Shown: positions 36,504-54,091 of the stretch, piece after piece
How positions within the stretch are numbered: the stretch's first letter is position 1
Layout of the letters: every line of letters starts with the position of its first letter
Origin: Acidimicrobiia bacterium
Lineage (GTDB): Bacteria > Actinomycetota > Acidimicrobiia > Spongiisociales > ZC4RG35
Assembly (NCBI GenBank): GCA_965203555.1
Contig: CBDBCY010000004.1
Span: 2,272,001-2,336,000, forward strand
Direction of reading: 5' to 3'
Length of the DNA stretch: 64,000 bases
Program-made: the position numbers and the translations under genes
The notes under the pieces: model-generated
Databases searched by the model: none
What the model saw: only the letters and a program-made list of their open reading frames with translations
What the model was told of the DNA's origin: nothing

Positions 36504-36863
36504 CTAATCCCAGCCCAGTTGGTGCAGTCGCTTTTCCGAGAGACCCAGGTAATGTCCCAGTTCGTGCAGCAAGGTCCGGCGGATCTCTTCTTCGGTCTCG
36601 GTCCGAGAAAGCCCCAGGTCCAGATGAGCCAACCGGTAAATGCGAATCTCGTCGGGCAGGACTCCCCAATAGTCCGCAGCGCGGTCCAGCAGTGAGACCC
36701 CGACATATTCACCCAGCAACTCATCCCCACAATCTGCCTTCCTCTCCTCTGGAGGAGGGGCGTCCATGGCCACCACCACCACGTTGTCCATCAACGAGTT
36801 CACCCATTCGGGTAGTTCGGCCAGTGCCCGGTCTATCACCTGCTCGAAGTCGTCCCTGCGCAT
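36504..36863 (-). CDS. Zincin-like metallopeptidase (DUF1025 family)
   Basis: FEQVIDRALAELP, LLGEYVG, LPDEIRIYR, TLLHELGHYLGL. Confidence 0.87.
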   Translation of the reverse strand: MRRDDFEQVIDRALAELPEWVNSLMDNVVVVAMDAPPPEERKADCGDELLGEYVGVSLLDRAADYWGVLPDEIRIYRLAHLDLGLSRTETEEEIRRTLLHELGHYLGLSEKRLHQLGWD

Positions 36864-36873
36864 TTGTGGGTTC

Positions 36874-37272
36874 TCAATACAGCGCAAGCACCGCTTCGAT
36901 TTCCACTACCGCTCGGGGGTCGGCCAATCCGCTGATCACAAGCAGGGTGTTGACCGGATAGTCGCCGTCGGGGTACCACTCCGAAAACACTTGGTTCCGT
37001 CCCTGGTAGAAACCCTGTAGGGCGGTCGCTGTCACGTAGGTTCGCAGGGAGGCGATGTCTGATGGGGAGGCGCCCAAGGATCCGACTAAGGCGTTGAGAT
37101 TGGAAAGGGCGTCCCGGGTCTGAGCGGCAGGGCCTTGCGCCATCGTTCCGTCTTTCCGACGACCGGTCTGTCCTGCCAGCCAGGCCAGGGAGGCGCCGGG
37201 AGGAGCTCGGGACACCAGTGAATACGGGCCGGTTGGGCGGCTTACTCCCGGCGGATTGCTTTTCCACAGCAT
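36874..37272 (-). CDS. RidA/YjgF/UK114 family protein
   Basis: GPYS, LAGQ, AQTRDALSNL, LADPRAVVEIEAV. Confidence 0.85.
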   Translation of the reverse strand: MLWKSNPPGVSRPTGPYSLVSRAPPGASLAWLAGQTGRRKDGTMAQGPAAQTRDALSNLNALVGSLGASPSDIASLRTYVTATALQGFYQGRNQVFSEWYPDGDYPVNTLLVISGLADPRAVVEIEAVLALY

Positions 37273-37325
37273 GACGACGTTGGCAGGAATCTACCAGCCG
37301 AAGTTCCGTCTTTCCAGATCTGCTA

Positions 37326-37341
37326 AGATTGGATCCAATCT
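37326..37341. promoter_or_regulatory. Perfect 16-bp palindrome, candidate GntR operator
   Basis: AGATTGGATCCAATCT between divergent ridA and cupin starts; related ATAGGATACAAT at 41829-41840 upstream of tctC. Confidence 0.6.
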
Positions 37342-37373
37342 GACAAATGCTCCCATAGGAGGTCTCCACCAAG

Positions 37374-38414
37374 ATGACAACCCGCACTCGTACCGCCACC
37401 AGTCACTACGAAGTCCAGAAAAAGCGCAGATCCGACGAACTGGAGTACTGGCGAGAGAACCGCCTGCACGTCGTCAGAGGCTCGGAAGTGGTCATGCATC
37501 CCACCCCCCGGGGAATTGACCGGGGAGTGCTGGTGGGGCTGGACGGGGACCGGCCGAGTCTGGTGCTGGACGCCCACCGCCATGACATGGCGCCGGGTGT
37601 GGTCTCCACGGTTCATCGTCACTCCTGGGACGCCATCATGTTCGTAACCGATGGTCGAGGATGGACGGAAGTCAACGGGCGGCGATACGACTGGAGGGCC
37701 TGGGACACCGTGTACCTACCCGCCTGGGCATGGCACCGCCACGGAAACGAAGGGGATTCCACCGCCTCATACGTCACCTTCGGCTCCGAACCCTTGGCGG
37801 AATTGGTGGGCATGGCCATCATCGAAGAAGGGGGCGATGCTCCTTTTGGTGATCTCCCGCCCTCGCTGACGGTGGCTGCCCCGGGGATGGGTTCGGATCC
37901 CTACACGCGACGAATCGAGCGTTTGGCCCGCCGCCAGGAGGCCTTTTCGGAGACTCGCATCATGACCGCTTTTGACGACATCCCTTTCCGGGTGACTCCC
38001 CGCGGGGCTCGAAGCGGGTTTCTGGTGGACCGGAGTCTCGGATACAACACTGGTGGCCTCACCGCGGTTATACACCAATTGGCGCCGGGTCTCTACCAGT
38101 CTCGCCATCGTCACGGGGGAGAGGCTTGGCTCTACTGCACTACCGGCCAGGGGTACAGCGTCATTGATGATGAACGCTATGACTGGGGTCCCGGTGACAT
38201 GGCCGTGGTCGACCACTGGGCCTGGCACCAGCATTTCAATGCCTCCGATACCCAGATAGCCGCCATTATCCGGGTTCACAACTTCGACAGTCTCTACATG
38301 GGCATGCGGGCGTTGCTGGACCCCTTGCCTCTCTTCGAGGAACCTCCCAAACTGGATGCTCCCGATCTCGCCGACATGGAATGGCCCCCTGCCGACGCCG
38401 GTCGACCGCAGTGA
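37374..38414 (+). CDS. Bicupin protein (gentisate-dioxygenase-like fold)
   Basis: Two cupin motifs: HRHSWD...WHRH and HRHGGE...WHQH. Confidence 0.8.
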   Translation: MTTRTRTATSHYEVQKKRRSDELEYWRENRLHVVRGSEVVMHPTPRGIDRGVLVGLDGDRPSLVLDAHRHDMAPGVVSTVHRHSWDAIMFVTDGRGWTEVNGRRYDWRAWDTVYLPAWAWHRHGNEGDSTASYVTFGSEPLAELVGMAIIEEGGDAPFGDLPPSLTVAAPGMGSDPYTRRIERLARRQEAFSETRIMTAFDDIPFRVTPRGARSGFLVDRSLGYNTGGLTAVIHQLAPGLYQSRHRHGGEAWLYCTTGQGYSVIDDERYDWGPGDMAVVDHWAWHQHFNASDTQIAAIIRVHNFDSLYMGMRALLDPLPLFEEPPKLDAPDLADMEWPPADAGRPQ

Positions 38415-39319
38415 TCGGAAGGGCCGACACGGCGAGGGAAAACCTCCGCCAAGACCGGTACGGATTCCTGCGCTGGCGACTCCTCCCTCAACCGGGCTGG
38501 GAGCAGTGGTGGGACCGGATCGTGGTTCCTGGGGGAATCAAGCAGCGGTTGGACGACTACACCCGGCAGGCGATCCGTCTGCGGGCCAGGTTCACGCAGG
38601 TGGGAATGCCGCTGCACGGCTTGGTTCTTCTCTACGGTCCGCCAGGAACCGGGAAGACCTCCCTCGCCAAGGGCCTGGCCAACCGTTTGGGTCAGCATCG
38701 CGGCCAGATCATCTTCGCCGAGGTGGATGCCCACGCCATGCCGTCGCAGATGTTGGGGGAGAGCCAACGCAATGTGGCGAATCTGCTCGAGAAGTCAATT
38801 CCGGAGTTGGCCGCCAAGGAACTGCCGGTGGTGGTGTTGATCGACGAGGTGACCTCGGTGGCGGTCAACCGGCAGATGGCGATGGGAGGCACCGATCCGG
38901 TGGATGTGATCCGCGCCACTGACGCCGCGCTCCAGGGGTTGGACCGTCTGGCCTCCGATCATCCCAACGTCCTGCTGGTTGCCACCTCCAACCTGGAGGG
39001 GGCCATCGATGAGGCGGTCCTGAGCCGGGTGGATCTGGCGGTCGAGATCGCGGTTCCCGACCGGGGTGCGAGAGTGCAAATCCTGTCGGACAGCCTGTCC
39101 GAACTGGCTTCGGTATTCAACTCCCGGGGCGCCGCCGTGGATGTGGACCAGAGTGAACTAAGTGACTTGGCGTCGGATCTGGCAGGACTGTCCGGTCGGC
39201 GGCTGCGCAAGCTGGTGTTCGAAGCCGTGCTGATTGCCGGGGAGTCCGGTCAGACCGGATTGACCGTCGAACATCTTCGAATGGCAACGGATCGTTCGGT
39301 CTCCGGGATTGGGCGATGA
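38411..39319 (+). CDS. AAA+ ATPase of the Pch2/TRIP13 (CBASS Cap6-like) type
   Basis: PLHGLVLLYGPPGTGKTSLAKGLA, VLIDEV, PVDVIRATDAAL, VATSN, AIDEAVLSR, LSGRRLRKL. GTG 38411 overlaps the cupin stop. Confidence 0.8.
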   Translation: MIGRADTARENLRQDRYGFLRWRLLPQPGWEQWWDRIVVPGGIKQRLDDYTRQAIRLRARFTQVGMPLHGLVLLYGPPGTGKTSLAKGLANRLGQHRGQIIFAEVDAHAMPSQMLGESQRNVANLLEKSIPELAAKELPVVVLIDEVTSVAVNRQMAMGGTDPVDVIRATDAALQGLDRLASDHPNVLLVATSNLEGAIDEAVLSRVDLAVEIAVPDRGARVQILSDSLSELASVFNSRGAAVDVDQSELSDLASDLAGLSGRRLRKLVFEAVLIAGESGQTGLTVEHLRMATDRSVSGIGR

Positions 39320-40611: not shown

Positions 40612-41798
40612 CTTCGTCTTCTCCGGTCAGATCACCGCTTCGGTATGAGTGGATGGCCCATCTGGGTGGAATGGCGGTCATCACCGGGGTTCAACTGATC
40701 TCTCCCGCCCTTCCCGCCCTCGCCGAACGATTCGCCCTTTCAGAGTCCGAAGTCTCTTTGGTGATCAGCATCTATTTGGTCCCCGCCGCCTTGGCGTCGG
40801 TGCCGGCGGGGTTTCTGGCCGACCGGTTCGGAAGACGGTGGGTCTTCGGCGCCGGCCTGTGTCTGTTCGGCCTGGCGGGGGTGCTTCTGCCTGTGGTGGC
40901 GCAAGAGTCCTTCGGAGCCCTACTGGTAATCAGGTTCATGCAGGGATTGGGATTCGCGCCGGCCTTTCCCCTCACCATCACCATCCTGGGCGATCTGTAC
41001 AAGGGTCCGAGACTGGTTGGCGCGCTGGGACGGCGGTCGGTTCTGATGTCGGTGGCCGACGGCGGCTATCCCATCCTGGGCGGGATCCTGGTGGGCCTTT
41101 CCTGGCTGGCGCCATGGTATCTGCAGGCTCTGGCTCTTCCGATCGGTCTGGTGGTGCTGTTGACCTTTCGGGACTGGGTGCCGCTGGGCAGTCGGGGTGG
41201 CATGGGCGGTATGCGATGGCTCTGGCGCTCGGTGCGTTCCAAGGGCATCCTGTCCCTCCACTACGTGGGTTTTCTCCGGTTCTTCGTCAAGTTCGCTTTG
41301 CTCTCCTACCTCCCGCTGCTGCTGGTGATATCCCGGGACATGACAGCAGCCCAAGCCGGTCTGATACTGGGCACGGCCGCTCTGTGCGGGACCTTGGGAG
41401 CAGCCATGAGCGCAGTGTTGGCCCGCCTCGGCCCGGCGTCCCGGTGGGTCATTGCGGGAATGGTCGTGCAGGGCCTGGGATTGGTGGTGATGGCCTTTGC
41501 GACCCGACTCTGGGTTCTGATGACGGTTGCGGTGATTTACGGGCTGGCCGACGGCGTCCTGGGCACGTTTGTCAACGCTTACCTGGCGTCGGCCACCGAC
41601 CCTGAGCACCGGGCCAGTCTGGTGGCCGCCAATGGGGCCATTAAGAATTTTGGAAAGCTCCTAGCGCCCATCCTGTTGGGGATGATGGTGTTGGTGATGC
41701 CTCTGTCGGTGGGGTTCGCGATTGTGGCGGTCGTGTTGGTCGTCTCGGCCCCGACGGCCGGCCCTCTCCGAGCCTACGACTCCAGGATTTCAAGGTGA
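40608..41798 (+). CDS. MFS transporter
   Basis: About 12 TM segments, motif A GFLADRFGRR; GTG 40608 overlaps the M20 stop. Confidence 0.88.
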   Translation: MTSSSPVRSPLRYEWMAHLGGMAVITGVQLISPALPALAERFALSESEVSLVISIYLVPAALASVPAGFLADRFGRRWVFGAGLCLFGLAGVLLPVVAQESFGALLVIRFMQGLGFAPAFPLTITILGDLYKGPRLVGALGRRSVLMSVADGGYPILGGILVGLSWLAPWYLQALALPIGLVVLLTFRDWVPLGSRGGMGGMRWLWRSVRSKGILSLHYVGFLRFFVKFALLSYLPLLLVISRDMTAAQAGLILGTAALCGTLGAAMSAVLARLGPASRWVIAGMVVQGLGLVVMAFATRLWVLMTVAVIYGLADGVLGTFVNAYLASATDPEHRASLVAANGAIKNFGKLLAPILLGMMVLVMPLSVGFAIVAVVLVVSAPTAGPLRAYDSRISR

Positions 41799-41921: not shown

Positions 41922-43982
41922 GTGCGAAAAAGATCTTGGCTATCGGCCTTGGTCGTGCTTATGGCCTTGGCGTTGATCACGGCTGCCTGTGGCGATGATG
42001 ACGAAGTCGCTGAAACGACCCAGGCGCCGACAACCACGGCGCCGCCGGCGGAGACTCCTGCGGAGGAACCTGCCGATGAACCGGCTGAAGAGCCCGCCGC
42101 AGAGCCCGAGGACATGGGCTGGGCGCCGAGTGGTGATGTGACGTGGATTGTGCCTTATAACCCTGGTGGTGGTTTTGATACTTACAGTCGGGGTTTGGCG
42201 CAGGTGTTGTCCGAGGGTGGTTTCCTGCCTGATGGTGTGACGGTGGTGGTGGAGAACATCACTCCGATCCAGCAGGGGGTTGCTGCGATGTTCAATGGTG
42301 ATCCTGATGGTCACACGATGGGTATTTTGCCGATGCCGGCTGCGATTGCCCAGGAGTTGATCAATCCGGAGATTTCTCCGTGGTCGACCGGGGAGTTCAC
42401 GGTGTTGGGTTCCATTGAGGAGAATGCCTACGTGTTGTATGTGGCTGCTGATGGTCCTTATCAGTCGATTGATGATTTGATGGGGGCTTCGGGGTTGAAT
42501 TCGTTGACGGTGGAGCGTGGTTCTTCGTCTTCGATCGCCAATGTGGTTGCCAGTGGCGCGTTGGGTTTGGATGCTCAGATCAACTTCGGCGCGGAGGGTT
42601 CTGAGGAGGCTGCGACTGCTTTGATCCGGGGTGATGTTGATTACATCGTTTATGGGACTACCGATTTGGTTGGTTTCATGGATTCTGGTGATTTGCGGGC
42701 GTTGTTGTTCCTGGGTACCGAGGATCAGCGTCCGGAGGCTTTGACCTGGTTGGCTGATGTTCCGAGCATCGCCGATGTCGGTTATCCGGAGGCTGCCGGT
42801 TCGGTGACCGAGTTGCGTGCGGTGGTGATGCCGCCCGGCCTGGACGACGAAGTAGCCGAATACTGGAGGAACACCCTGTACGAGGCGATGACTTCCGACG
42901 ATTTCGCCGCCTGGTCAGAAGAGGCCGGCCGGCCCATCATCCCCCGCGATGCGGAATCGGCCCGTGGCGTGATGGCCGCCCAGGTCGACACCATGAGAGC
43001 TCTCGATCCCGACCTGGTGGCGCAGTTGCGCTCCGAAGGAGCCGCGGCTGCTCCGAGTTGGGCGCCGAGTGGTGATGTGACGTGGATTGTGCCTTATAAC
43101 CCTGGTGGTGGTTTTGATACTTACAGTCGGGGTTTGGCGCAGGTGTTGTCCGAGGGTGGTTTCCTGCCTGATGGTGTGACGGTGGTGGTGGAGAACATCA
43201 CTCCGATCCAGCAGGGGGTTGCTGCGATGTTCAATGGTGATCCTGATGGTCACACGATGGGTATTTTGCCGATGCCGGCTGCGATTGCCCAGGAGTTGAT
43301 CAATCCGGAGATTTCTCCGTGGTCGACCGGGGAGTTCACGGTGTTGGGTTCCATTGAGGAGAATGCCTACGTGTTGTATGTGGCTGCTGATGGTCCTTAT
43401 CAGTCGATTGATGATTTGATGGGGGCTTCGGGGTTGAATTCGTTGACGGTGGAGCGTGGTTCTTCGTCTTCGATCGCCAATGTGGTTGCCAGTGGCGCGT
43501 TGGGTTTGGATGCTCAGATCAACTTCGGCGCGGAGGGTTCTGAGGAGGCTGCGACTGCTTTGATCCGGGGTGATGTTGATTACATCGTTTATGGGACTAC
43601 CGATTTGGTTGGTTTCATGGATTCTGGTGATTTGCGGGCGTTGTTGTTCCTGGGTACCGAGGATCAGCGTCCGGAGGCTTTGACCTGGTTGGCTGATGTT
43701 CCGAGCATCGCCGATGTCGGTTATCCGGAGGCTGCCGGTTCGGTGACCGAGTTGCGTGCGGTGGTGATGCCGCCCGGCCTGGACGACGAAGTAGCCGAAT
43801 ACTGGAAGCGGACTTTGATCACCGCCATGATGTCGGATGATTTCGCCGCCTGGTCAGAAGAAGCAGGCCGGCCCATCATCCCGCGTGGCGCCGAGTCCGC
43901 CAAGAACGTGATGGCCGCCCAGGTCGACACGATGAAGGCCCTGGATCCCGATCTGGTGGCGCAGTTGCGCTCCGAGGGATAA
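41922..43982 (+). CDS. tctC: Tripartite tricarboxylate transporter substrate-binding lipoprotein (TctC/Bug) with two tandem domains
   Basis: Lipobox ITAAC; WIVPYNPGGGFDTYSR (Bug PxxxGGxxD motif), PDGHTM, LADVPSIADVG each present twice. Confidence 0.85.
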   Translation: MRKRSWLSALVVLMALALITAACGDDDEVAETTQAPTTTAPPAETPAEEPADEPAEEPAAEPEDMGWAPSGDVTWIVPYNPGGGFDTYSRGLAQVLSEGGFLPDGVTVVVENITPIQQGVAAMFNGDPDGHTMGILPMPAAIAQELINPEISPWSTGEFTVLGSIEENAYVLYVAADGPYQSIDDLMGASGLNSLTVERGSSSSIANVVASGALGLDAQINFGAEGSEEAATALIRGDVDYIVYGTTDLVGFMDSGDLRALLFLGTEDQRPEALTWLADVPSIADVGYPEAAGSVTELRAVVMPPGLDDEVAEYWRNTLYEAMTSDDFAAWSEEAGRPIIPRDAESARGVMAAQVDTMRALDPDLVAQLRSEGAAAAPSWAPSGDVTWIVPYNPGGGFDTYSRGLAQVLSEGGFLPDGVTVVVENITPIQQGVAAMFNGDPDGHTMGILPMPAAIAQELINPEISPWSTGEFTVLGSIEENAYVLYVAADGPYQSIDDLMGASGLNSLTVERGSSSSIANVVASGALGLDAQINFGAEGSEEAATALIRGDVDYIVYGTTDLVGFMDSGDLRALLFLGTEDQRPEALTWLADVPSIADVGYPEAAGSVTELRAVVMPPGLDDEVAEYWKRTLITAMMSDDFAAWSEEAGRPIIPRGAESAKNVMAAQVDTMKALDPDLVAQLRSEG
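42120..43806. repeat. Intragenic direct repeat: 748-bp apparently identical core (42120-42867 / 43059-43806), period 939 bp, followed by diverged ~170-bp tails
   Basis: Read by eye; identical translations up to EVAEYW, then RNTLYEAMTS versus KRTLITAMMS. Confidence 0.9.
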
Positions 43983-44076
43983 CCGAATAACGAAGTAGAG
44001 GTGTTGCCGAGGAGATGGCCGGGCCTGCAAACCCGGTCGTCTCCTCCACACCCGATGAGACAAGATCCGAGAGTAA

Positions 44077-46110
44077 ATGACACTTCTTGAGGGACTGACC
44101 TCCGCCGCCGATCTCCTGCTCAGTTGGCCGTTGCTGTTGTTCTTTTTGCTGGGAACGCTCAACGGCCTGGTATTTGGCATCCTTCCCGGCTTGAGCGGGT
44201 CGGTGGGAATCGCATTGATGATCCCTCTCACCTTCGGGATCGACATTTCGGAGGCGATCGTGTTGTTTACCGCCGCCCTGTCCGGGCAGACTTTCGCAGG
44301 TTCCATCACGGCCATACTGCTGAACACACCCGGGACCGCGCCCAATGCGGCCACTACCTTCGATGGCTATCAACTCTCCCGCCAGGGTAAGGCCGGGTAT
44401 GCCCTGGGGATATCGGCCATGGCGTCGTCGCTCGGTTCCCTGGTGGGCGTGGTAGTGCTGGTGGGTTTGCTGCCGGCGGTGAGAGTGTTCATACTCTCCT
44501 TCTCCTACCCCGAATTCATGCTGCTGGCATTGATGGGCCTGGCCGCCATCGCCGCGGCTTCCCGGGGGTCGCTCATCAAAGGGCTGATCGCCGGAGGGGT
44601 GGGAGTCATGCTGTCCTTCGTGGGACTGGGATCGTGGGGTCAGCGATATGTATTCAACTCTTTGAGCCTGATTGACGGGGTGGACGTGATTGCGGTGTTG
44701 ATCGGGCTGTTCGCCATCTCCGAGGTGGTGCGACTTCTGAAGCAGAACCGCCCCATCTCCCGGGTCGGGGACATGCCGCTTGACCGCTCGCAGGTCTGGC
44801 AGGGTATGTGGTACGTAATCAAAAAGCCGTTCCTGCTGATCCGCAGCGCCCTGGTGGGCACCGGTCTGGGGATCGTCCCGGCGGTGGGAGGGACGGTTGC
44901 ATCCTTCATGGCCTACTACCAGGCTATGCACACCACCAAGGACGGCAAGTTCGGGCAGGGCGATCCCAGAGGCGTGCTGGCGCCCGAAGCCGCCAACGAC
45001 GGAAAGGACGCCGGTGCGGCGCTTCCCACCCTGGCCTTCGGTCTGCCGGGCAGCTCCGACTGGGCGATCATCCTGGGCGCCATGGTGCTCTACGGGGTGG
45101 TGCCGGGACCGAATCTGTTGCGGGAGCGCCCCGATATCGTCTGGATTGCCATCATCGTCATCCTGGCCGCATCCTGGGTCACCTCGGCGATCGGTATAGC
45201 TGCTTCCCGCTGGCTGGTGCCGGTAACCAAGGTGCGGCCGTCCCTCCTGGCGCCGATCGTGGCGGTTTTGGCGCTGGTGGGGTCATTCGGACTGGAGCGG
45301 CAGTTCGTGGATGTCATATTCACCGTGGGGTTCGGCATCCTGGGCTATTACATGAAGATCCACCGGATGCCGGTGGTGCCGCTCATCCTGGGTCTGTTGC
45401 TGGGAGCCGAAGCCGAGCGTTCCTTTCACCTTTCGATGAACCTCTTTGATCAGGGTTTGCTGGTGTTTCTCACCCGGCCCATCTCCCTGGTCCTGCTGGC
45501 GGTGACCGCCTCTCTCCTGATCGGGTCGGTCTGGTCGGTGGCCCGGCGGCGCAAGAAGCTGGGCGGCGAGGCGGAGGTGGCGATCGCCCCCGCCGAGATG
45601 GGACTGGTGGCGTTCATCGGGGCGGTGATGCTGGCCGCCACTCTTTTCTCTTACACGTTCCCCGCCAACGAAGGGCGACTGTTTCCCCAAGTGGTGGGTT
45701 GGGGGACGGTGGCCCTGGTGTTGATTTTCCTGGTGGTGGCCCGAAACCCCGCCCTGCGGTCCCGTTGGGGATATTTCATCAGTGAGGAGCTGATCCATTT
45801 TGACAGGGGTCAGCAGGAGGAGGCGGAAGAGCCGGTCGTTGCCGAGATCGAATCGGACGACGATCAAGCTCGACGGGAGCGGGCCCTGTTGCTGTCGCTG
45901 TTCGGCTTCCTGGCGGTCGCTTGGCTGGCTGGGCTCAACCTGGTGGCGGTGCCGCTGTACGTCCTGGCCTTGATGAGATGGTTCGGGCGGGAGAAGTGGC
46001 GGACCTCGGTCATCGCGGCGCTGGTCACCACGGTCTTGATCTGGTTCATGATCAACTTCATTCTGAGTTCTCCCATTCACTGGGGTCTGCTGCTTGAGCC
46101 CCTTTTCTGA
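44077..46110 (+). CDS. tctA: Tripartite tricarboxylate transporter permease TctA with a fused C-terminal TctB-like region
   Basis: GILPGL, ILLNTPGT, APEAANDG, PTLAFGLPG; about 170 extra aa with four or more TM segments. Confidence 0.85.
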   Translation: MTLLEGLTSAADLLLSWPLLLFFLLGTLNGLVFGILPGLSGSVGIALMIPLTFGIDISEAIVLFTAALSGQTFAGSITAILLNTPGTAPNAATTFDGYQLSRQGKAGYALGISAMASSLGSLVGVVVLVGLLPAVRVFILSFSYPEFMLLALMGLAAIAAASRGSLIKGLIAGGVGVMLSFVGLGSWGQRYVFNSLSLIDGVDVIAVLIGLFAISEVVRLLKQNRPISRVGDMPLDRSQVWQGMWYVIKKPFLLIRSALVGTGLGIVPAVGGTVASFMAYYQAMHTTKDGKFGQGDPRGVLAPEAANDGKDAGAALPTLAFGLPGSSDWAIILGAMVLYGVVPGPNLLRERPDIVWIAIIVILAASWVTSAIGIAASRWLVPVTKVRPSLLAPIVAVLALVGSFGLERQFVDVIFTVGFGILGYYMKIHRMPVVPLILGLLLGAEAERSFHLSMNLFDQGLLVFLTRPISLVLLAVTASLLIGSVWSVARRRKKLGGEAEVAIAPAEMGLVAFIGAVMLAATLFSYTFPANEGRLFPQVVGWGTVALVLIFLVVARNPALRSRWGYFISEELIHFDRGQQEEAEEPVVAEIESDDDQARRERALLLSLFGFLAVAWLAGLNLVAVPLYVLALMRWFGREKWRTSVIAALVTTVLIWFMINFILSSPIHWGLLLEPLF

Positions 46111-46562
46111 TGCCCGCGCAGGAGTTTCGCCGCGAAGTGGTTGTCAATCTGAGCCGTCCCAGAATGTGGGAAGTGCTGTTGGATGTGGAGACGGTGGCCG
46201 GTTGGGTGGGTTTGATCGGTGAGGTGAGAGAGGTTGTTCCTCTTTCACACTATGTGGCGGTGCTCCAGGACCGGGTGGGTCCCTTTCGATTGAGGGCCGA
46301 CCTGGCAATCCTCGTCAAGGAAATGGATCGGGGGTCGAAGGTGGTGCTGGAGGCGGAAGGCGAGGATCGCCAGGTCCGTTCCCGGATAAAGGTGAATCTG
46401 ACCCTCCGTCTGTTCGACACCCCGGAGGACGCCACGGCCTTGCGGCTTCAGGGTCGCTACGAGGTCACCGGACGGGTGGCGACTCTGGGCGCCTCGCTCA
46501 TCAGGCACAAGGCCGAGACCATTTTAAACGAGTTCTGCGCCAGGGCGGCGAAGGCGGCCTAG
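46110..46562 (+). CDS. CoxG/SRPBCC family protein
   Basis: WEVLLD, VGPFR, VTGRVATLGASLI; directly precedes Mo-hydroxylase genes. Confidence 0.8.
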   Translation: MPAQEFRREVVVNLSRPRMWEVLLDVETVAGWVGLIGEVREVVPLSHYVAVLQDRVGPFRLRADLAILVKEMDRGSKVVLEAEGEDRQVRSRIKVNLTLRLFDTPEDATALRLQGRYEVTGRVATLGASLIRHKAETILNEFCARAAKAA

Positions 46563-46563
46563 C

Positions 46564-47358
46564 GTGGGTGTTCTCCCCCCTTTCCGGCTGTTGCGGCCCC
46601 GCACGGTCTCCCAGGCGCTGGCGTGGCTGGACTACGACCGGATGGCGTACGCGGGCGGCACGGAGTTGCTGCTGGCCATGAAGGAGGGTTTGCTGCGTCC
46701 CACCCACCTGGTGGATCTCAAGGGGATCGAGGGGATCGGCTCGGTGGAGGAATCCGGCGGCGAGGTGTCGATCGGGGCCCTGGTGACTCATACGCAGGCC
46801 GCCGATCATCCTGTCGTGCGGGACCGGATACCCGGATTGGCCCCGGTGCTCCGCAGGGTCGGCAACCCCAGGGTGCGATCCACCGGTACCCTGGCCGGCA
46901 ACCTGTGTTTTGCCGAGCCCCGCTCCGACGTGGCCGCGGCGCTGATCGCCCTGGGGGGTGAAGTGGAGATCGCTTCCGAAGGGGGCCGAAGGCGGATGCC
47001 GGTGGAGGATTTCGTGCTGGGTCCTTACACCACCGCATTGGAACCCGGACAAATGCTCACCCGGATCCTTGTTCCGATACGCCCCGATCTGCGGTTCGTA
47101 TATCTAAAACATCAGACCGCCGAGCGGCCCGCCCTGGGAGTGGCGCTGGCCGCCGGTTCGCATGTCTGCACGGTGGTGGGCGCGGTGGGCCTCAGCCCGC
47201 AGGTCTTCAAGTTGGGTTCGGTCTCCGATCTCGACCCAGGCGACATCGCGGGCCGGGTGGAGGTGATCGGGGACCTCACCGGGTCGGAGGAGTACAAAAG
47301 GCACCTGGTGGAGGTGTACCTGGGTCGGGCGGTCGACAGCATGGAGCGTGACCGATGA
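46564..47358 (+). CDS. Molybdenum hydroxylase FAD-binding subunit (CoxM/CutM-like)
   Basis: AGGTELL, RVRSTGTLAGNL. Confidence 0.88.
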   Translation: MGVLPPFRLLRPRTVSQALAWLDYDRMAYAGGTELLLAMKEGLLRPTHLVDLKGIEGIGSVEESGGEVSIGALVTHTQAADHPVVRDRIPGLAPVLRRVGNPRVRSTGTLAGNLCFAEPRSDVAAALIALGGEVEIASEGGRRRMPVEDFVLGPYTTALEPGQMLTRILVPIRPDLRFVYLKHQTAERPALGVALAAGSHVCTVVGAVGLSPQVFKLGSVSDLDPGDIAGRVEVIGDLTGSEEYKRHLVEVYLGRAVDSMERDR

Positions 47359-47846
47359 TCGGGGTGGAGACGGTCGAGATAACCCCGATGGTCAACGGGC
47401 GGGAGATGGTCGTTTCCGTGCCGGTGAGAATGACACTGGCCGAGATGCTGCGGGACCGGTTGGACCTGTTCGGCGTGAAGCTCAGTTGCGAGATGCAGGT
47501 GTGCGGGGTGTGTACCGTTCTGGTCGACGACCAACCGGTGTCCTCCTGCACCCTCCTGGCGGCCGACGTGGATCGAAGACGGGTACTGACCATTGAAGGT
47601 CTGGCGGACGGGGAGCAACTTCATCCCATCCAGCAGGCCTTCGTGGACCACTTTGCGTTGCAATGCGGCTTCTGCACCCCGGGATTCATATTGATGACCA
47701 AGCATCTGCTGGAGCGTTCGCCGGACCCGGGCCCCGATGAGATCGTTGAACACTTCGATGGGAATCTGTGTCGCTGCACCGGCTACGCGCCGATCATCGA
47801 GGCGGTGGCGGATGCGGCCGGCCGTCTGCGGGCCAATCCCTCATGA
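47355..47846 (+). CDS. Molybdenum hydroxylase 2x[2Fe-2S] subunit (CoxS/CutS-like)
   Basis: CEMQVCGVC..SSC, QCGFCTPG, NLCRCTGY. Confidence 0.92.
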   Translation: MIGVETVEITPMVNGREMVVSVPVRMTLAEMLRDRLDLFGVKLSCEMQVCGVCTVLVDDQPVSSCTLLAADVDRRRVLTIEGLADGEQLHPIQQAFVDHFALQCGFCTPGFILMTKHLLERSPDPGPDEIVEHFDGNLCRCTGYAPIIEAVADAAGRLRANPS

Positions 47847-50083
47847 TCTCTCCCCCCCGGCTGGACGCGGTCCCCAAGGTGACCGGCAGGGCGCGTTACG
47901 CGGTGGATTTCCGAGCCCCGAACATGCTTTATTCGTCATTGGTCCGATCAGAACGGGCTCATGCCATGCTGGAAGGCATCGACGCTTCGGCGGCGCTGGC
48001 CACCGAGGGGGTGGTGGCGGTTATCACCGGCTACGACCTCGCTCCGCTCTTCCCCCGCTTCGGTCACATCATCGCAGACCATCCCATCCTGGCGATCGAC
48101 AAGGTGCGTTACCTTGGCGAACCGGTGGCGCTGGTGCTGGCTGAGGATCGGTACGCCGCTTCGGACGGCGCGGAGTCGGTGCAGGTCGCCTACCGGGAAC
48201 TGGCGGCGGTGATGGATCCCGAGCAGGCCTTGGCGGAGGATGCTCCCCTGCTCCACACCACCGATTACGGGGTGGGTGACCGTTCCTTCGAGGAGGCTCA
48301 CTCGGAGTCTCGCTCCGACAACGTCTGCCACCGGGTGGAGCTTTCATGGGGAGACGTGGATCAGGCTTTGTCCGAAGCCGACCTGGTGGTGGAGACCTCT
48401 ACCTCTTATCCCAAGCTGTACGGCTATGCGATGGAGCCCTACAACGCTCTTGCCCGTTTCGAGGACGGGTATCTGAAGGTGATCACCACCGCTCAGCATC
48501 CGTTCATGGTCCGGGACGATCTGGCCCGGGTGTTCTCCCTGCCGCTCAGCCATGTTCGGGTCACCTCACCCTATGTGGGCGGCGGCTACGGCACCAAGTC
48601 CTACACCAAGGTCGAACCGCTGGCGGCGGTGGGCGCCTGGTACACCGGTCGACCGGTGAAGGTGGAACTCGACGCTACCGGCTCGATCCTCACTACCCGC
48701 GCCGACTCGGCTCAGGTCACCATCCGGTCCGGATTCAAGGCCGACGGCGTGCTTTTGGCCCGCGATGTTCGGTTGACCCTGGACACCGGCGCCTACGCCG
48801 ACAACGGGCCGTTGGTGCTTTCCAAGGCCTCTAATCGCTCCTTCGGTCCCTACCGGAACGAAAACGTGCGGGTGAGCGGCACCGCGGTGTACACCAATAC
48901 GGTTCCGTCTTCCTCCTATCGGGGATTCGGCGCCCCGCAGGTCAGCCTGGCGTCCGAGCTCAACATGGATCAGGCTGCCCAGCAACTGGGTGTCGACCCC
49001 GTCCAGTTGCGTCGCCGCAATCTCATTCCACCCGGCGAGCGTCACTATCCGGGCAAACGCCCGATGGACGCCGATCTGGTGTCCGACCTCGACCTTCTGG
49101 CGGAGGCGCTGGGCTGGGGGGACCCGGTGGAGGAGCGCCAGGGAATCGGGTTCGGGGTGACCGCCTCCGACGCGGGGGCCTACCCGGTCTCCACCGCCAC
49201 GGTCAAGATTCTCCCCGACGGTTCGGTGCTGGTGTCGACCGGCTCGTCGGAGATGGGGCAGGGGAGCAGAACGGCGCTGGCCGTGATCGCCTCCCGGGAG
49301 TTGGGAGTTGCCTTGGAGAGGGTGGCCATAGCCCAATCCGACACGCACGCCACTCCTTATGAACGGACCTCTGGAGCGAGCCGTACCACCACCCTCACCG
49401 GCCTGGCCGTCCAGAGGGCCTGTTCGGAACTGTTGTCGCGTCTGGAGACGGCAGCTGCGGAACTTCGGGGAGGTCCGCTCACCGAAGTAAAGGCGGCTGA
49501 AGGGATGGTGGTAGGGCCGTGGGGCGATCTCACTTTCGGAGAGGTGGTGCAGGGTTGGTTCGGCGGCCGGCTGGGAGAGCTGTCGGCCACCGGGGTGGTG
49601 CGCCGGGTGGGAGAGTTGGAAGAGCTTCCTCCCTTCTGGGAGATCGGGGTGTCGGGGGTGAAAGTGCGTGTCGACTCCGACACCGGCCAGGTGACCTGTC
49701 TGCGCATGGTTACGGTGGCCGACGTCGGCCATGCCATTCATCCGGAGATGCTCAAGGGGCAGGATGTGGGAGCGGCCACCCAGGGGCTGGGTGCGGCGCT
49801 CTATGAAGAATTGGTGTACGACGGCCCGCAGTTGGTCAACTCCAACCTGGTGGAGTACCGGGTTCCCCGCGCCGGGGACATGCCCACCCAGATCGTGACC
49901 ATCGTGGCGGAGCGTGGTGACGGGGTGGGTCCCTACGGCGCCAAAGGGGGAGGGGAGGGAACTCTGAATCCCATAGGGGGAGCCACCGCCGCCGCGGTCG
50001 GCCGGGCGGTGGGCCGCTGGCCGGACCGGCTGCCACTCACTCCGGAACGAGTGTGGAGATTGATGAGAGGAGACGGAAGCTGA
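47843..50083 (+). CDS. Xanthine dehydrogenase family molybdopterin-binding subunit
   Basis: KVTGRARY, AQHP, VGGGYGTK, YRGFGAPQ, EMGQG, GAKGGGEG. ATG 47843 overlaps the previous stop. Confidence 0.9.
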   Translation: MISPPRLDAVPKVTGRARYAVDFRAPNMLYSSLVRSERAHAMLEGIDASAALATEGVVAVITGYDLAPLFPRFGHIIADHPILAIDKVRYLGEPVALVLAEDRYAASDGAESVQVAYRELAAVMDPEQALAEDAPLLHTTDYGVGDRSFEEAHSESRSDNVCHRVELSWGDVDQALSEADLVVETSTSYPKLYGYAMEPYNALARFEDGYLKVITTAQHPFMVRDDLARVFSLPLSHVRVTSPYVGGGYGTKSYTKVEPLAAVGAWYTGRPVKVELDATGSILTTRADSAQVTIRSGFKADGVLLARDVRLTLDTGAYADNGPLVLSKASNRSFGPYRNENVRVSGTAVYTNTVPSSSYRGFGAPQVSLASELNMDQAAQQLGVDPVQLRRRNLIPPGERHYPGKRPMDADLVSDLDLLAEALGWGDPVEERQGIGFGVTASDAGAYPVSTATVKILPDGSVLVSTGSSEMGQGSRTALAVIASRELGVALERVAIAQSDTHATPYERTSGASRTTTLTGLAVQRACSELLSRLETAAAELRGGPLTEVKAAEGMVVGPWGDLTFGEVVQGWFGGRLGELSATGVVRRVGELEELPPFWEIGVSGVKVRVDSDTGQVTCLRMVTVADVGHAIHPEMLKGQDVGAATQGLGAALYEELVYDGPQLVNSNLVEYRVPRAGDMPTQIVTIVAERGDGVGPYGAKGGGEGTLNPIGGATAAAVGRAVGRWPDRLPLTPERVWRLMRGDGS

Positions 50084-50775
50084 TGGATGTGAGCAGGCTG
50101 GAGCCGTGGGTGGCGGAGGCGCGCCGCCGCTACCGGACCGCCGAGGATATGGTCACCGGAGTTCTCCGGGAGGCGATCGTCACCGGCGCGTTCAGTCCCG
50201 GAGAGCGACTTCCCCAGGATCAGCTGGCCGAGTTGTTGATGGTCAGCCGTATGCCCATCCGTGCCGCCCTGCGCCAACTGGACTCCGAAGGGCTGGTGGT
50301 CAACATTCCCCATCGCGGCGCCAAGGTGCGGGAATTGTCACCTGCCGAGTTGCGTGAGTTGTACGAACTGCGGGTGGTGGTGGAGTGTTTTGCATTGCGC
50401 CGGTCGGTGGGGGAGGCCGTTCCCACGGACCTTCTGGAGTTGGGGGAACTGGCCGAAAGCTGCGAAGAAGCCGAGGAAGGAGATGAGTGGATCCGACAGA
50501 GGTGCGCCTTCTACCGGCGGCTTTACACCATTGGCAACGGAGTCAGGGTGGTGGATACCATCATGGCGCTTCGCGCCGAAGTGAGCCGGTACTTGTTGCG
50601 GAAGAGGTTCTGTCCCGGGTGGCACCGAGAATTGCTGGATATTCTGGCCAAGGGCGATGCCGAAGAGGCTGCCAAGTCCCTCGAGGACCATCTGATGGAG
50701 GTGCTGGAGTCGATGGAAGAGGAGATCAGCGCCGCCAATGGGTGGAACGGAGCAGGGGACCGGGAGGAAGGATGA
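50083..50775 (+). CDS. GntR family regulator (FCD domain)
   Basis: LREAIVTGAFSPGERL, VSRMPIRAAL, ELYELR. Confidence 0.9.
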   Translation: MDVSRLEPWVAEARRRYRTAEDMVTGVLREAIVTGAFSPGERLPQDQLAELLMVSRMPIRAALRQLDSEGLVVNIPHRGAKVRELSPAELRELYELRVVVECFALRRSVGEAVPTDLLELGELAESCEEAEEGDEWIRQRCAFYRRLYTIGNGVRVVDTIMALRAEVSRYLLRKRFCPGWHRELLDILAKGDAEEAAKSLEDHLMEVLESMEEEISAANGWNGAGDREEG

Positions 50776-51722
50776 GAAAGGAGCAGGTTGCTTTCTACAG
50801 CCACGGGGAGAGAGTGGTGGGTACCCTGCACCTGCCCGATTCGAGCGGGAGCCGTCCAGGTCCGGCCATAGTTCAGGGACCGGGCTGGATGGGTTTGCGC
50901 ACCGCCGGGCTGTACGGTCCCTACCACCAGGCCTTTGTGTCGGCGGGAATGGCGGTCCTGATCATCGACTACCGGGGGTTCGGCGATTCGGGAGGCGATC
51001 TGATGGCCTTCTCCCCGGCGCGACAACTGGAAGATCTGATCAATGCGGTGACCTATCTCACCACTCGCCCCGAGGTGGATGCCGATCGGATCGGCGCATT
51101 CGGGTCGGGAGGGACGGGGGGCGGCAATGCGGTTTGCCTGGCTGCATCGGATGCGAGGGTGAGGAGCGTGGTCTCCCAGGTTCCGGTTGCCGACGGTCGC
51201 GACTGGCTGCGGAGAATGCGACGGGGCTACGAGTGGCAGGAATTCTTGGAGCGGATACAAACCGACAGGGCCAAGAGGGTGATCACCGGCCAGGGGGAGT
51301 TGGTCCATCCCCAAGAGATCATGATTCCAACTCCTGAACGGAGGGCCACCAGCATAAAAAAGGACGTCGATTCCCGGGTTCCCGTTCGCCTGCCCCTGGC
51401 GGCGGCGGAGGGGATCATGGCCTACCAACCGGTCGAGATGGTTGATCGGATCTCTCCCCGGCCGTTGCTGATCGTGGCGGTGGAAAACGATCCGGTCACC
51501 CCCACCGATCACGCCCGGGCGCTCTACGACCGGGCCGGTCCGCCCAAGAAACTGATTGTTCAGCGGCACACCACCCATTACGCCGCCTACCGGCAATACG
51601 GCAGGACGATCATTCCCCACATAGTGGGCTGGTTTCGAAAAGGTCTGGGGACGGCCAGGATAAAGGCTGTCGAAGCAACCACGGACAAAGAGGAGCACAT
51701 GATTATCGAGGAGATCGAATGA
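50772..51722 (+). CDS. Alpha/beta hydrolase with an atypical nucleophile elbow
   Basis: DYRGFGDSGG, EVDADRIGAFGSGGTGGG, ISPRPLL..NDPVTP, HY. ATG 50772 overlaps the GntR stop. Confidence 0.8.
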   Translation: MRKEQVAFYSHGERVVGTLHLPDSSGSRPGPAIVQGPGWMGLRTAGLYGPYHQAFVSAGMAVLIIDYRGFGDSGGDLMAFSPARQLEDLINAVTYLTTRPEVDADRIGAFGSGGTGGGNAVCLAASDARVRSVVSQVPVADGRDWLRRMRRGYEWQEFLERIQTDRAKRVITGQGELVHPQEIMIPTPERRATSIKKDVDSRVPVRLPLAAAEGIMAYQPVEMVDRISPRPLLIVAVENDPVTPTDHARALYDRAGPPKKLIVQRHTTHYAAYRQYGRTIIPHIVGWFRKGLGTARIKAVEATTDKEEHMIIEEIE

Positions 51723-53110
51723 ACATCAACAGAGTCATCAGAGGCGCCGCGGTGGTCAGGGAGGGTTGTCTGCAGGAGATGGACATTATGGTGGCCGGGG
51801 AGCGGATCTCCGGGCTGGCCGTGCCGGGTGCCATCGCGCCCCCCTTTTCCGCTGAGGTGGTGGAGGCTGACGGATTGTGGGCTTTGCCGGGGGGAGTCGA
51901 TGTCCATGTCCACTTGCGGGAACCCGGTTATACCCACAAGGAGGACATCGAGACCGCCACCCGCGCCGCGGCGGCCGGCGGCTACACCACCGTGTTGGGG
52001 ATGCCCAACCTGAAGCCGCCCACCATGACCGCCGACGATCTCCGGGAGACTTTGAAGTTGTACGACCGAAAGAGCCTGGTGGACTACAACCACAATCCCG
52101 CCGCCAAGCAAAAAGAGGAACTGGCGGAGATGGCGACAATGGGGATCGCCGCCTACAAGATCTACATGGTCGCCGATACCGGCCGGTCGTATCCGCATCC
52201 TGCCGCCATCGGGGTTCATGATCACGGACATCTCTTGGAAGCGATGCAGACCGTGGCCGAAACCGGTCTGATTTTGATGGTCCATCCTCATGACCAACGC
52301 ATAGAAGAAGTGGTGGAGCAGCGTTTCTGGGATGCGGGGGACCGATCCCCCGAGGCGTATGCACGCACTCTGATGACCGGAGACGGGATGCTGTGGGACA
52401 CCGCTTCCGCTCTCCTGATCCGCATGGCCGAGGCCACCGGCTGTCGATTGCACATTGTGCACACCACCACCACCCGCCAGATCGAGATGATCCGAGCGGC
52501 GCGCCGGCGCGGCGTGGCGGTTACCTGCGAGGCGAATCATTGGACACTGTTTCTCGCCACCTGGGAGTTGGTGAAGGAGTTGGGTCCCTACGTGCTTTCG
52601 TATTGGGTTCCCCCCCATCACCAGGAAGCGGTGTGGAGAGCCCTGGCCGATGGGTCCATCGACATGGTCGCCTCCGATCACGCTCCCCACACCAGGGAGG
52701 AGAAGGACGTCGGCTACCGGGACATGTGGGCCGCTCACACCGGAACCCCCGGGATCCAATACCAGTTGCCTCTCCTGATCGACGCCCACCATCAGGGCCG
52801 GATCTCCCTGGCCCGGCTGGTGGAGGTGGTGGCGGGCGCCCCCGCCCGGCTGTTCGGTCTCTCCGGAAAGGGCCGGATCGAGCCGGGCGCCGACGCCGAC
52901 CTGGTCCTGGTCGATCCTCACAGGGAGTGGACGATCACCAACGAGTCGGTGCTTTCCAAGATCGACTGGACTCCCTATCACGGACGAACAATTAGGGGAG
53001 CGGTGCGGCGCACGATGGTGCGGGGGACCGACGTCTACGTCGATGGAGAAGTTGTAGGGACCCCAGGCTTTGGTCGCCAAGCTGTTCCCGACGCCCCCAA
53101 TAGGAGTTGA
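51719..53110 (+). CDS. Dihydroorotase/allantoinase-family cyclic amidohydrolase
   Basis: PGGVDVHVHLREPG, AAAAGGYTT..MPN, YKIYM, HIVH, ASDHAPH, GADADLV. Confidence 0.88.
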   Translation: MNINRVIRGAAVVREGCLQEMDIMVAGERISGLAVPGAIAPPFSAEVVEADGLWALPGGVDVHVHLREPGYTHKEDIETATRAAAAGGYTTVLGMPNLKPPTMTADDLRETLKLYDRKSLVDYNHNPAAKQKEELAEMATMGIAAYKIYMVADTGRSYPHPAAIGVHDHGHLLEAMQTVAETGLILMVHPHDQRIEEVVEQRFWDAGDRSPEAYARTLMTGDGMLWDTASALLIRMAEATGCRLHIVHTTTTRQIEMIRAARRRGVAVTCEANHWTLFLATWELVKELGPYVLSYWVPPHHQEAVWRALADGSIDMVASDHAPHTREEKDVGYRDMWAAHTGTPGIQYQLPLLIDAHHQGRISLARLVEVVAGAPARLFGLSGKGRIEPGADADLVLVDPHREWTITNESVLSKIDWTPYHGRTIRGAVRRTMVRGTDVYVDGEVVGTPGFGRQAVPDAPNRS

Positions 53111-53113
53111 ACC

Positions 53114-54091
53114 ATGAATTTCGGATTGTTGCTGCCCCACTTCGGTCGTCACATCGACCGCGACATGCTCTGGGACGGGGCGAGGAGAGCAGAGGAACTG
53201 GGCTTTGACTCCCTGTGGGTCAGAGACCATCTGATGTTCGAGCCCCATGGAGAATTCGAGGCGCCCAACAGGTCTTTTCTGGAGCCCTTAACGGTGCTGA
53301 CGTCGGTGGGGGCAGTCACTTCCTCGATCATGCTGGGAACAGCAACCCTGATTCCCTATCGTCATCCGCTGGTGGTTGCCGCCACCCTTGCTTCGGTCGA
53401 TTCGCTGGTCGGCAATGGCCGCCTGATCACCGCCTGGGGGGCCGGCGGCTATGACTTCGAATTCGAAGCCGTTGGGATCACCGGCGTATTCCGACCCGAG
53501 TTGGTGGAGTCCAATGCGCGGATCCTGGCCAAGATTCTCTCCGAGGACCACGTCACCTACCAGGACAGGCACTACCGGTTCGAGAACGCCACCATCCGCC
53601 CCCATCCCGCCACTCCCATTCCCTTCTGGTACGGAGGGGCCACTCCCGCCTCGGCTCGCCGAGCCGCCACCTATTGCAGCGGCTGGATGCCGGGACGGAT
53701 CACCCTTCCCACCATCGCCAAGCGGGTGGCCCAGATGCAAGGGCTCACCCGGGAGAACGGACGTCCCATGCCGACGGTCGCCTGCATACCGCCCACCAGC
53801 ATCGCCGAGACCACCGAGGAGGCCATGGCCGGGACGTCGCTCGAAGGACTTCTCGCCTGGGCCAACACCCGCGGCAAATGGTGGGTCAAGCCTCCTTCGG
53901 GTCGCTTCGAGACCGCCGAGGACATCGAAGGTTCCCTGATCGCAGGAACCCCGGACGAGGTGGTAACCGCCACCGCCAAGTTCGAAGACGTGGGCGTCGA
54001 CCACCTGGTCTTCGACCTGCGTCTCTCCTTCGACCGATGGCTTCAGAGCATCGACCTGCTGGGCAGAGAGGTGATCCCCCGCCTTCGATAA
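53114..54091 (+). CDS. LLM-class (luciferase-like) flavin/F420-dependent oxidoreductase
   Basis: AEELGFDSLWVRDH, YRHP, FWYGG, IAGTPDEV. Confidence 0.87.
   Translation: MNFGLLLPHFGRHIDRDMLWDGARRAEELGFDSLWVRDHLMFEPHGEFEAPNRSFLEPLTVLTSVGAVTSSIMLGTATLIPYRHPLVVAATLASVDSLVGNGRLITAWGAGGYDFEFEAVGITGVFRPELVESNARILAKILSEDHVTYQDRHYRFENATIRPHPATPIPFWYGGATPASARRAATYCSGWMPGRITLPTIAKRVAQMQGLTRENGRPMPTVACIPPTSIAETTEEAMAGTSLEGLLAWANTRGKWWVKPPSGRFETAEDIEGSLIAGTPDEVVTATAKFEDVGVDHLVFDLRLSFDRWLQSIDLLGREVIPRLR

Follow-up and report, generated by a model that had tools for sequence, protein, structure and literature searches.

A TRIP13-family AAA+ ATPase paired with a bicupin in a putative catabolic operon of an Acidimicrobiia bacterium: a candidate HORMA-independent remodeller

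The 64-kb stretch of Acidimicrobiia DNA analysed here (the window; C4:2272001-2336000, contig CBDBCY010000004.1 of assembly GCA_965203555.1) contains a gene coding for an AAA+ ATPase of the TRIP13/Pch2 family, located between the genes for a protein with two cupin domains (bicupin) and for an M20-family hydrolase. TRIP13/Pch2 is regarded as a dedicated remodeller of HORMA-domain switches; the gene pair described below may represent a TRIP13-type motor that acts on a metalloprotein of the cupin superfamily. The features at the center of this analysis are the following:

37374..38414, + strand: bicupin, 346 aa, two Cupin_2 domains (Pfam); proposed client of the ATPase
37374..37409, + strand: codons 1-12 of the bicupin (MTTRTRTATSHY), a Thr-alternating N-terminal tail; proposed pore-engagement element
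38411..39319, + strand: TRIP13/Pch2-family AAA+ ATPase, 302 aa from a GTG start; match to PDLC00915
39316..40611, + strand: M20-family (ArgE/DapE-like) hydrolase, 431 aa; M20_dimer (Pfam)

The GTG at 38411 is most likely the start of the ATPase; it is preferred over an in-frame ATG (open reading frame, ORF, 38381..39319, + strand, 312 aa), since the 10 extra residues are not conserved among homologues. In the DNA, the bicupin stop and the ATPase start overlap in a GTGA (38411-38414), and the ATPase stop and the M20 start in an ATGA (39316-39319); an earlier note on this DNA, made from the sequence alone, had described the ATPase as translationally coupled on both sides, and both overlaps are indeed present. 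The translation contains PLHGLVLLYGPPGTGKTSLAKGLA, SQMLGESQRNVANL and PVDVIRATDAALQGLDRLASDHPNVLLVATSNLEGAIDEAVLSR, as well as GLSGRRLRKLV and LTVEHLRMA; all the motifs quoted in that note were found, the first one having been slightly misquoted, as it actually reads LPQPGWEQWWDRIV. Walker A (GPPGTGKT), Walker B (D145-E146), sensor 1 and the arginine finger are conserved, and D145-E146, N194, R206 and the SQMLGESQR of pore loop 1 are invariant or nearly so in 32 ATPase homologues; by these residues the protein looks like an active motor.

Profile, fold and tree all identify the window ATPase as a genuine member of the TRIP13/Pch2 family, as had been proposed. The PADLOC TRIP13 profile PDLC00915 matches it over the full length (E 1.9e-81, 271.8 bits; residues 18-295 aligned to profile positions 12-290 of 302), the second-best PADLOC family being IetA, with 85 bits. 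Pfam recognizes only the generic AAA domain (PF00004, 78.9 bits); no NCBIfam model is reached at its cut-off, the PAN, CDC48 and FtsH models giving no more than 84 bits and thus remaining well short of theirs. The MoxR-type matches are also weak, with 19.1 bits for AAA_3 (cut-off 27) and 23.7 bits, on a partial stretch, for AAA_5, both far under the AAA and TRIP13 scores of the same protein. An AlphaFold2 (AF2) model, built from 32 homologues with a predicted local distance difference test score (pLDDT) of 87.3, retrieved PCH-2/TRIP13 structures at Foldseek ranks 1-11 (4xgu, 6f0x, 5vq9, 5vqa, 6lk0; E 1.6e-18 to 2.2e-15), all of them of C. elegans PCH-2 or human TRIP13; the bacterial Trip13 of E. 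coli MS115-1 (6p8v_C) was found at rank 15, with a template modelling (TM) score of 0.75. PCH-2 4xgu is also the best single-domain PDB sequence match (111.6 bits). A CDC48-like reading was rejected: p97/CDC48 came first in the PDB sequence search because the scores of two domains, ~62 and ~58 bits each, had been added together.

Trees were built with FastTree (163 rows) and with IQ-TREE (LG+C20 PMSF, quick search; 99 rows), using the ATPases of loci of known context, representatives of 50% clusters and, as outgroups, the ARC- and FtsH-like modules of the same genome. A bacterial TRIP13-like clade is recovered in both trees (85 rows in IQ-TREE, with a value of 97 in the Shimodaira-Hasegawa-like approximate likelihood ratio test, SH-aLRT), and it includes all the rows that come from an antiphage signalling system based on cyclic oligonucleotides (CBASS). 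The window ATPase is inside this clade and does not group with the ARC- or FtsH-like modules, which is the placement expected from the earlier note. It belongs to clade A (21 rows, SH-aLRT 99), with a bicupin upstream in 20 of the rows; clade B, another lineage linked to bicupins, groups with monocupin-linked lineages (26 rows, SH-aLRT 97). All 11 CBASS-context rows fall into one separate clade of 22 rows (SH-aLRT 96), with which FastTree agrees, and the sister group of this CBASS clade is linked to a different bicupin, either adjoining the ATPase gene (L114) or contained in the same operon (L097). A group of 426-448-aa proteins, one of them from a choanoflagellate, branches outside the bacterial TRIP13-like clade. 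P0138, from Streptosporangiales, is related to clade C. Thus, the initial designation as "Cap6/TRIP13-like" holds for the TRIP13 family but not for Cap6, the window ATPase being in a separate clade and its operon being devoid of CBASS genes. The root of the tree must be taken with caution, because the trees are quick, the outgroups are few and the Trip13 type of operons with one HORMA gene is unlabelled.

Some observations made along with the trees concern other members of the family. In the CBASS-sister loci L097 and L113 the TRIP13-like gene comes after OppD/F-type ABC ATPase genes and before a conserved 102-111-aa ORF without Pfam family (L097 6860-7195, L113 2234-2542), next to which is a Zn-dependent alcohol dehydrogenase gene; in L097 a second-type bicupin is also coded, ~4 kb upstream. 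At least about 2145 TRIP13-like matches were obtained in all. The highest-ranking matches of the representative search (P0121-P0129 and others) were giant proteins of 1000-2350 aa with 3-7 TRIP13-like stretches each, 29-35% identical, which suggests multi-AAA proteins built from a TRIP13-like module. A comparison at the residue level was withdrawn: the His of PVDVHRAT, found in clade B, clade C and the CBASS paralogue, had been equated with His173 of Ec Pch2, and the spacing after the Walker B Glu differs (21 vs 14 residues).

The bicupin gene is directly upstream of the ATPase gene in 7/7 close loci, from Acidimicrobiia metagenome-assembled genomes with 75-82% ATPase identity. These loci keep the order bicupin-ATPase-M20-MFS-TctC-TctAB-CoxG-FAD-FeS-Mo, and such synteny among close relatives could, taken alone, be inertia. 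A sample of 201 genomes from the same order, searched for TRIP13-like genes at E<=1e-30, yielded only five positive genomes besides that of the window (49-56% identical); in each of these the gene directly upstream codes for the bicupin (63-65% identical), with the surrounding genes rearranged. The reverse search, performed with the bicupin on the same 201 genomes, returned the identical six genomes, the pair being adjacent in each. As regards metagenomes, 80 loci were found with an ATPase alignment, and a cupin gene lies directly upstream in 52 of them: 38 are whole bicupins, 10 are cut by a contig end and four are scored as monocupins, two of these being contig-cut. The other loci have HORMA/CD-NTase (cGAS/DncV-like nucleotidyltransferase) genes downstream (12), another or a truncated context (nine), or no upstream flank (seven); cupin and HORMA occur together in 0/80. 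The pair persists across ATPase identities of ~45-100%, the two genes overlapping by 4 or 8 nt in clade A and being 1-4 nt apart in most of clade B. The conserved cupin-AAA pairing on which the initial proposal depended is borne out by these counts from close loci, order and metagenomes. The unpublished genomes G344 and G585, which came up in two search outputs, are not used for any of the claims made here.

A phylum-wide sample of 401 genomes contained a bicupin homologue (45-52% identical) in three genomes besides the window's own, namely G475, G459 and G397. In G475 a TRIP13-like gene adjoins the bicupin gene (45% identical), the two genes being convergent. At this locus (L137, G475:C290, 2148-5563) a gene with a class III adenylate/guanylate-cyclase domain is found directly upstream of the TRIP13-like gene, on the same strand, and the bicupin gene converges on both; the arrangement echoes that of CD-NTase, TRIP13 and HORMA genes.

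No HORMA, CD-NTase or effector gene is present in the operon or elsewhere in the window. This absence, reported in the earlier note, is true of the 64 kb but does not extend to the genome, which holds a complete type III CBASS ~360 kb upstream of the window (C4:1947895-1952104, i.e. 7895-12104 of locus L010); the only bacHORMA_2 match and the only SMODS match of the whole genome are both located there, at C4:1.949 Mb. The system comprises TRIP13, HORMA (PDLC00881), bacHORMA_2, a SMODS CD-NTase and a SAVED/PD-(D/E)xK nuclease; a type I restriction-modification HsdM gene comes after it. Its TRIP13 scores 352 bits on PDLC00915, above the window ATPase, and the two proteins are 41% identical. A CBASS locus elsewhere had been named in advance as evidence against the proposal; such a locus exists, yet it does not refute the proposal, because this CBASS has its own, separate TRIP13 and because no HORMA or CD-NTase match occurs in 5/5 other genomes that carry the ATPase.

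Those five genomes (G091, G044, G089, G116 and G125; 72-99% complete) gave no match (0/5) in searches with PF18173 (bacHORMA_2), PF18138 (bacHORMA_1), PDLC00881 (the PADLOC HORMA model) and PF18144 (SMODS). The bacHORMA_2 and SMODS searches do recover the CBASS genes of the window's own genome, which provides a positive control; the negative result with bacHORMA_1 (PF18138) is weak, since its control matched nowhere. Of the 96 loci classified, 66 are cupin-linked, and tblastn detected HORMA genes in none of these 66. A plasmid collection gave 13 matching records (36-44% identity), from which no cupin-linked example emerged; ordinary CBASS operons were seen in the two that were inspected, Polaromonas JS666 plasmid 1 and Rhodococcus opacus pLPS8. 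The ATPase lineage is HORMA-free and does not belong to any CBASS operon. Since PADLOC-type profiles match metabolic genes such as this one (272 bits), an orphan TRIP13 match should not be read as a remnant of a defence system.

The bicupin is only distantly related to gentisate/salicylate 1,2-dioxygenases. Its best PDB sequence match is the gentisate 1,2-dioxygenase 3bu7 (69.5 bits), and the nearest folds of its AF2 model (pLDDT 75.9) are those of salicylate and gentisate dioxygenases; the protein remains under the cut-offs of the gentisate dioxygenase model TIGR02272 (62.3 vs 442.1 bits) and of the 5-aminosalicylate dioxygenase model (76.4 vs 650 bits). In 32 homologues the HxH...H motif (HRH...H) is invariant in both barrels, and the His/Glu metal-ligand sets are complete and invariant in both. 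Residues 1-12 are predicted to be disordered (pLDDT <50); nevertheless T5, T7, H11, Y12, Q15, R18 and R19 are invariant among 32 sequences of both clades, which are 54-91% identical overall. The tail reads MKTTTTTQTTHYEIQKKRR in the clade B bicupins and MVTRTRTNVTHWEVQ in that of G475. In G459, a genome without a TRIP13-like gene, it is shortened to MTGTTHYQVQ; the coincidence of a short tail with a missing ATPase is only suggestive (n=2).

In a study on bacterial Pch2, the HORMA N-terminus is reported to be threaded through the pore of this ATPase with a two-residue periodicity, HORMA N-termini are reported to have Ser/Thr conserved at every second position, and deletion of HORMA residues 1-12 served as a test of threading (Ye et al., bioRxiv 10.1101/694695). 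The mechanism proposed here derives mainly from the resemblance of the bicupin tail to these Ser/Thr-alternating N-termini gripped by Pch2. The explanation that we favour, and hold with about even confidence, is that the ATPase is a HORMA-independent remodeller or activase of the TRIP13 type and that its client is the bicupin; the role of an activase or chaperone would fit the anatomy of the pair. The ATPase would assemble as a hexamer and draw the N-terminal tail of the bicupin into its pore, in the way that Pch2 handles HORMA N-termini, and might then partly unfold the helix that follows the tail and the first barrel. Such remodelling could load, reset or switch the metalloenzyme, for example by releasing an oxidized or wrong metal or a dead-end ligand. 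A complex prediction of ATPase and bicupin, run without controls, scored 0.03 against a mark of 0.32 and speaks neither for nor against such a complex.

Several points weigh against this explanation. The candidate pore-loop-2 position is occupied by I/V/M/A in clade A, not by His. The segment ~315-346 of the bicupin is also predicted to be disordered, yet it is among the best-conserved parts of the protein; since the C-terminal 30 residues share both properties with the N-terminal tail, it could be the C-terminus that is engaged. The second bicupin type (L114, L097), linked to another ATPase clade, does not have the Thr-rich tail, and N-terminal conservation could serve oligomerization or something else. 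The conserved adjacency would be equally compatible with co-regulation of two proteins that do not touch, and the pair counts overstate independence, as the carriers are related to one another and some metagenome loci are near-duplicates from related samples. Moreover, G459 (95% complete) has a bicupin that is 52% identical and G397 (98% complete) one that is 45% identical and apparently frameshifted, and no TRIP13-like gene is found in either genome, so that the ATPase is not an obligate requirement of the bicupin family.

The remaining genes around the pair are as follows:

36504..36887, - strand: Zincin_1 small metallopeptidase-like protein (PF06262, 78.7 bits); conserved in L025
36874..37272, - strand: RidA/L-PSP-like protein, divergent from the bicupin (Ribonuc_L-PSP, 47 bits)
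40620..41798, + strand: major facilitator superfamily (MFS) transporter (MFS_1, 151 bits); syntenic in 7/7 close loci
41922..46110, + strand: tripartite tricarboxylate transporter, with a TctC-like protein (686 aa) and a TctA-TctB fusion (677 aa) (Pfam TctC, TctA, TctB)
46110..50083, + strand: CoxG-like protein and the FAD, 2Fe-2S and Mo subunits of a xanthine-dehydrogenase-family hydroxylase (Pfam COXG, FAD_binding_5, Fer2_2, MoCoBD_1/2)
50053..54091, + strand: GntR/FCD regulator, cyclic amidohydrolase (allantoinase/dihydroorotase/hydantoinase-like) and F420-type luciferase-like oxidoreductase (Pfam)

The simultaneous presence of a Mo-hydroxylase, a cyclic amidohydrolase, M20, RidA, transporters and a GntR regulator makes the operon look, by its predicted gene content, like one for the catabolism of an N-heterocyclic carboxylate. 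The M20 protein scores 87 bits on the ArgE/DapE subfamily model, below the cut-off of 217.6, and all the matches of the Mo-hydroxylase genes are under their cut-offs. Among the Mo-hydroxylase, amidohydrolase, luciferase-like, GntR and Tct proteins only the amidohydrolase reaches a cut-off, that of TIGR00857 (281.6 vs 279.05), which is a domain-level model for dihydroorotase; none of the NCBIfam matches of these proteins names a substrate or a pathway. Homologues of the regulator, amidohydrolase and oxidoreductase flank the cupin-ATPase pair in many metagenome loci, and the RidA-like ORF and its DNA are conserved in relatives. The TctC-like receptor (686 aa) is of double length, with two matched stretches.

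Metatranscriptomic contigs from a coral sample bridge both junctions of the ATPase gene (38275-38608 and 39171-39557) and share their variants with the DNA run made on that sample. They give a weak hint of co-transcription of bicupin, ATPase and M20, and only a weak one because DNA carry-over is possible. Contigs of this kind are also found over the divergent RidA/Zincin_1 region (36500-37166). RNA run X10 has zero cover and run X7 leaves the genes partly uncovered; neither counts as evidence of absence. A scan of 36400-42200 gave two promoter-like sites, with 0.9 expected, and one terminator-like site, with 4.4 expected, and Rfam had no match in the whole window.

Two further regions of the window were noted. 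A segment of ~3.5 kb (~32995-36504) is missing from six syntenic relatives and is possibly a mobile insertion. A 129-aa ORF that matches no family and a DUF222 gene at 33478-34530 are located in it, besides a C/A-rich part of ~2 kb (AT skew +0.185, GC skew -0.13) that has no convincing ORF. An 891-aa ORF (54362-57037, + strand) combines GPP34 (Golgi phosphoprotein 3 family) and cytochrome P450 domains, an unusual fusion.

Activity on the bicupin has to be weighed against other roles of the ATPase. It might serve another part of the operon, such as M20 or, by a CoxD-like cofactor insertion, the Mo-hydroxylase, or it might be a general chaperone of the operon, its adjacency to the cupin being incidental. 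The M20 gene, whose start overlaps the ATPase stop in the window, follows directly in 7/7 close loci and in 4/5 of the genomes from the order, and Mo-hydroxylase genes are near the pair in many loci. In other clades, however, M20 is displaced or absent: an MFS gene takes its place in G089, L039 and L050 or is interposed between ATPase and M20 in part of clade B, and the monocupin loci have an alpha/beta hydrolase or a thiamine pyrophosphate enzyme instead; the Mo-hydroxylase genes, in turn, switch side and strand, or are missing or out of view. Known Mo-enzyme maturation ATPases such as CoxD are of the MoxR type, whose families AAA_3 and AAA_5 match the window ATPase only weakly, below cut-off. 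A client of this kind thus seems quite unlikely, and the maturation of the Mo-hydroxylase, which the earlier note had offered as an alternative, turns out to be less well supported, as Mo-hydroxylase and M20 are variable neighbours and the cupin alone is constant. The cupin could also be a ligand-sensing conformational switch, analogous to HORMA and reset by the ATPase, in a regulatory or signalling module of the operon. Resetting of switch proteins is the known task of TRIP13; the bicupin matches AraC_binding (43.7 bits), a cupin type that acts as ligand sensor in AraC-type regulators, and the cyclase-domain gene of G475 stands beside TRIP13-like gene and bicupin in the manner of CD-NTase, HORMA and TRIP13. 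Still, the bicupin has complete and invariant metal-ligand His/Glu sets in both barrels, ring-cleaving dioxygenases as its nearest structures, a gene surrounded by those of catabolic enzymes, and no DNA-binding or output domain, so that a switch function is unlikely.

That the two genes are co-inherited and co-expressed without any contact between their products, the ATPase having a housekeeping or stress role and the linkage being historical, would agree with the two genomes that retain the bicupin without the ATPase. Such a linkage would have to account for a pair kept over ATPase identities of ~45-100% amid rearranged surroundings, for its recurrence in several separate ATPase clades, where the cupin may have the architecture of a bicupin, of a monocupin or of the second bicupin type, and for the cupin found in all clade A and B members with readable upstream sequence; it is distinctly improbable. 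A spare or degenerate Cap6 that acts in trans with the type III CBASS of the genome, or has another defence role, is hardly credible: the full system (TRIP13, two HORMA, CD-NTase and SAVED-nuclease) is indeed present in the same genome and the PADLOC TRIP13 profile matches the window ATPase, but the presence of a dedicated TRIP13 in the CBASS (352 bits, 41% identical), the lack of HORMA or CD-NTase matches in 5/5 other carriers, the position outside the CBASS clade and the synteny of the orthologues inside a metabolic operon largely refute it.

If the favoured explanation is true, the bicupin would be the first non-HORMA client for the TRIP13 family, substrate choice and engagement by such motors could be studied on the pair as a simple bacterial system of two proteins, and a TRIP13-type member would be added to the small set of AAA+ enzyme activases. 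The question also bears on the origin of the HORMA-TRIP13 partnership and hence of part of the eukaryotic checkpoint machinery. Every non-CBASS lineage of readable context is cupin-associated (clades A and B, the monocupin clade C, L032, G475 and the L114/L097 types), and in the outgroup-rooted tree the cupin-associated lineages bracket the single CBASS clade. An approximately unbiased (AU) test of all cupin-linked rows as one clade gave p 0.0507, for a grouping chosen after the tree was viewed. Partnership with a cupin, and not with HORMA, might be the general, possibly ancestral, state of the bacterial TRIP13-like family, a proposal that we make tentatively and consider doubtful. If so, a metabolic enzyme-activase motor would later have been recruited for the resetting of HORMA switches in immunity, and TRIP13-type motors would have a whole class of non-HORMA metalloenzyme clients.

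In the accessible parts of the two studies consulted, prokaryotic Trip13 is described only with HORMA operons (Tromer et al. 2019, PMC6601020; Ye et al., bioRxiv 10.1101/694695). Full-text literature searches for TRIP13, Pch2 or Cap6 together with cupin, bicupin or gentisate returned nothing relevant, although the supplementary trees of those studies may hold such sequences unremarked; within this scope, the characterization of the cupin-TRIP13 module as undescribed is upheld.

Among known systems, Cap6/Trip13 of type III CBASS (E. coli MS115-1, 6P8V) resembles the window ATPase in its size of ~300 aa, in being a single AAA+ module without a large N-terminal domain, in matching the same PADLOC profile, in its fold (TM 0.75) and in the G-x-S/V motif of pore loop 1; the threading of a Ser/Thr-patterned N-terminal tail is the mechanism borrowed from it for the proposal on the window pair. 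Unlike Cap6, the window ATPase belongs to a separate clade and to an operon without HORMA, CD-NTase or effector, where its partner would be a cupin metalloprotein and the context is apparently catabolic. Eukaryotic TRIP13/PCH-2 provides the best structural matches (4xgu, 6f0x, 5vq9) and the best single-domain PDB sequence match; in contrast to the window ATPase, it has an N-terminal domain of ~100 aa, HORMA clients and the adaptor p31comet (bioRxiv 10.1101/694695). On the side of the partner, gentisate/salicylate 1,2-dioxygenases share with the window protein the bicupin fold and the His-rich metal motif, but the window bicupin scores low against them, has metal ligands in both barrels and bears conserved, predicted-disordered N- and C-terminal tails. 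As to function, we know of no TRIP13-family member that works as an enzyme activase. The closest analogy is with Rubisco activase/CbbX and the MoxR-type CoxD, in which a dedicated AAA+ motor, coded beside the gene of a metalloenzyme, pulls on a terminal tail and resets or matures the active site; these motors come from different AAA+ clades and have clients of their own, and the analogy with the window pair is thus a functional one.

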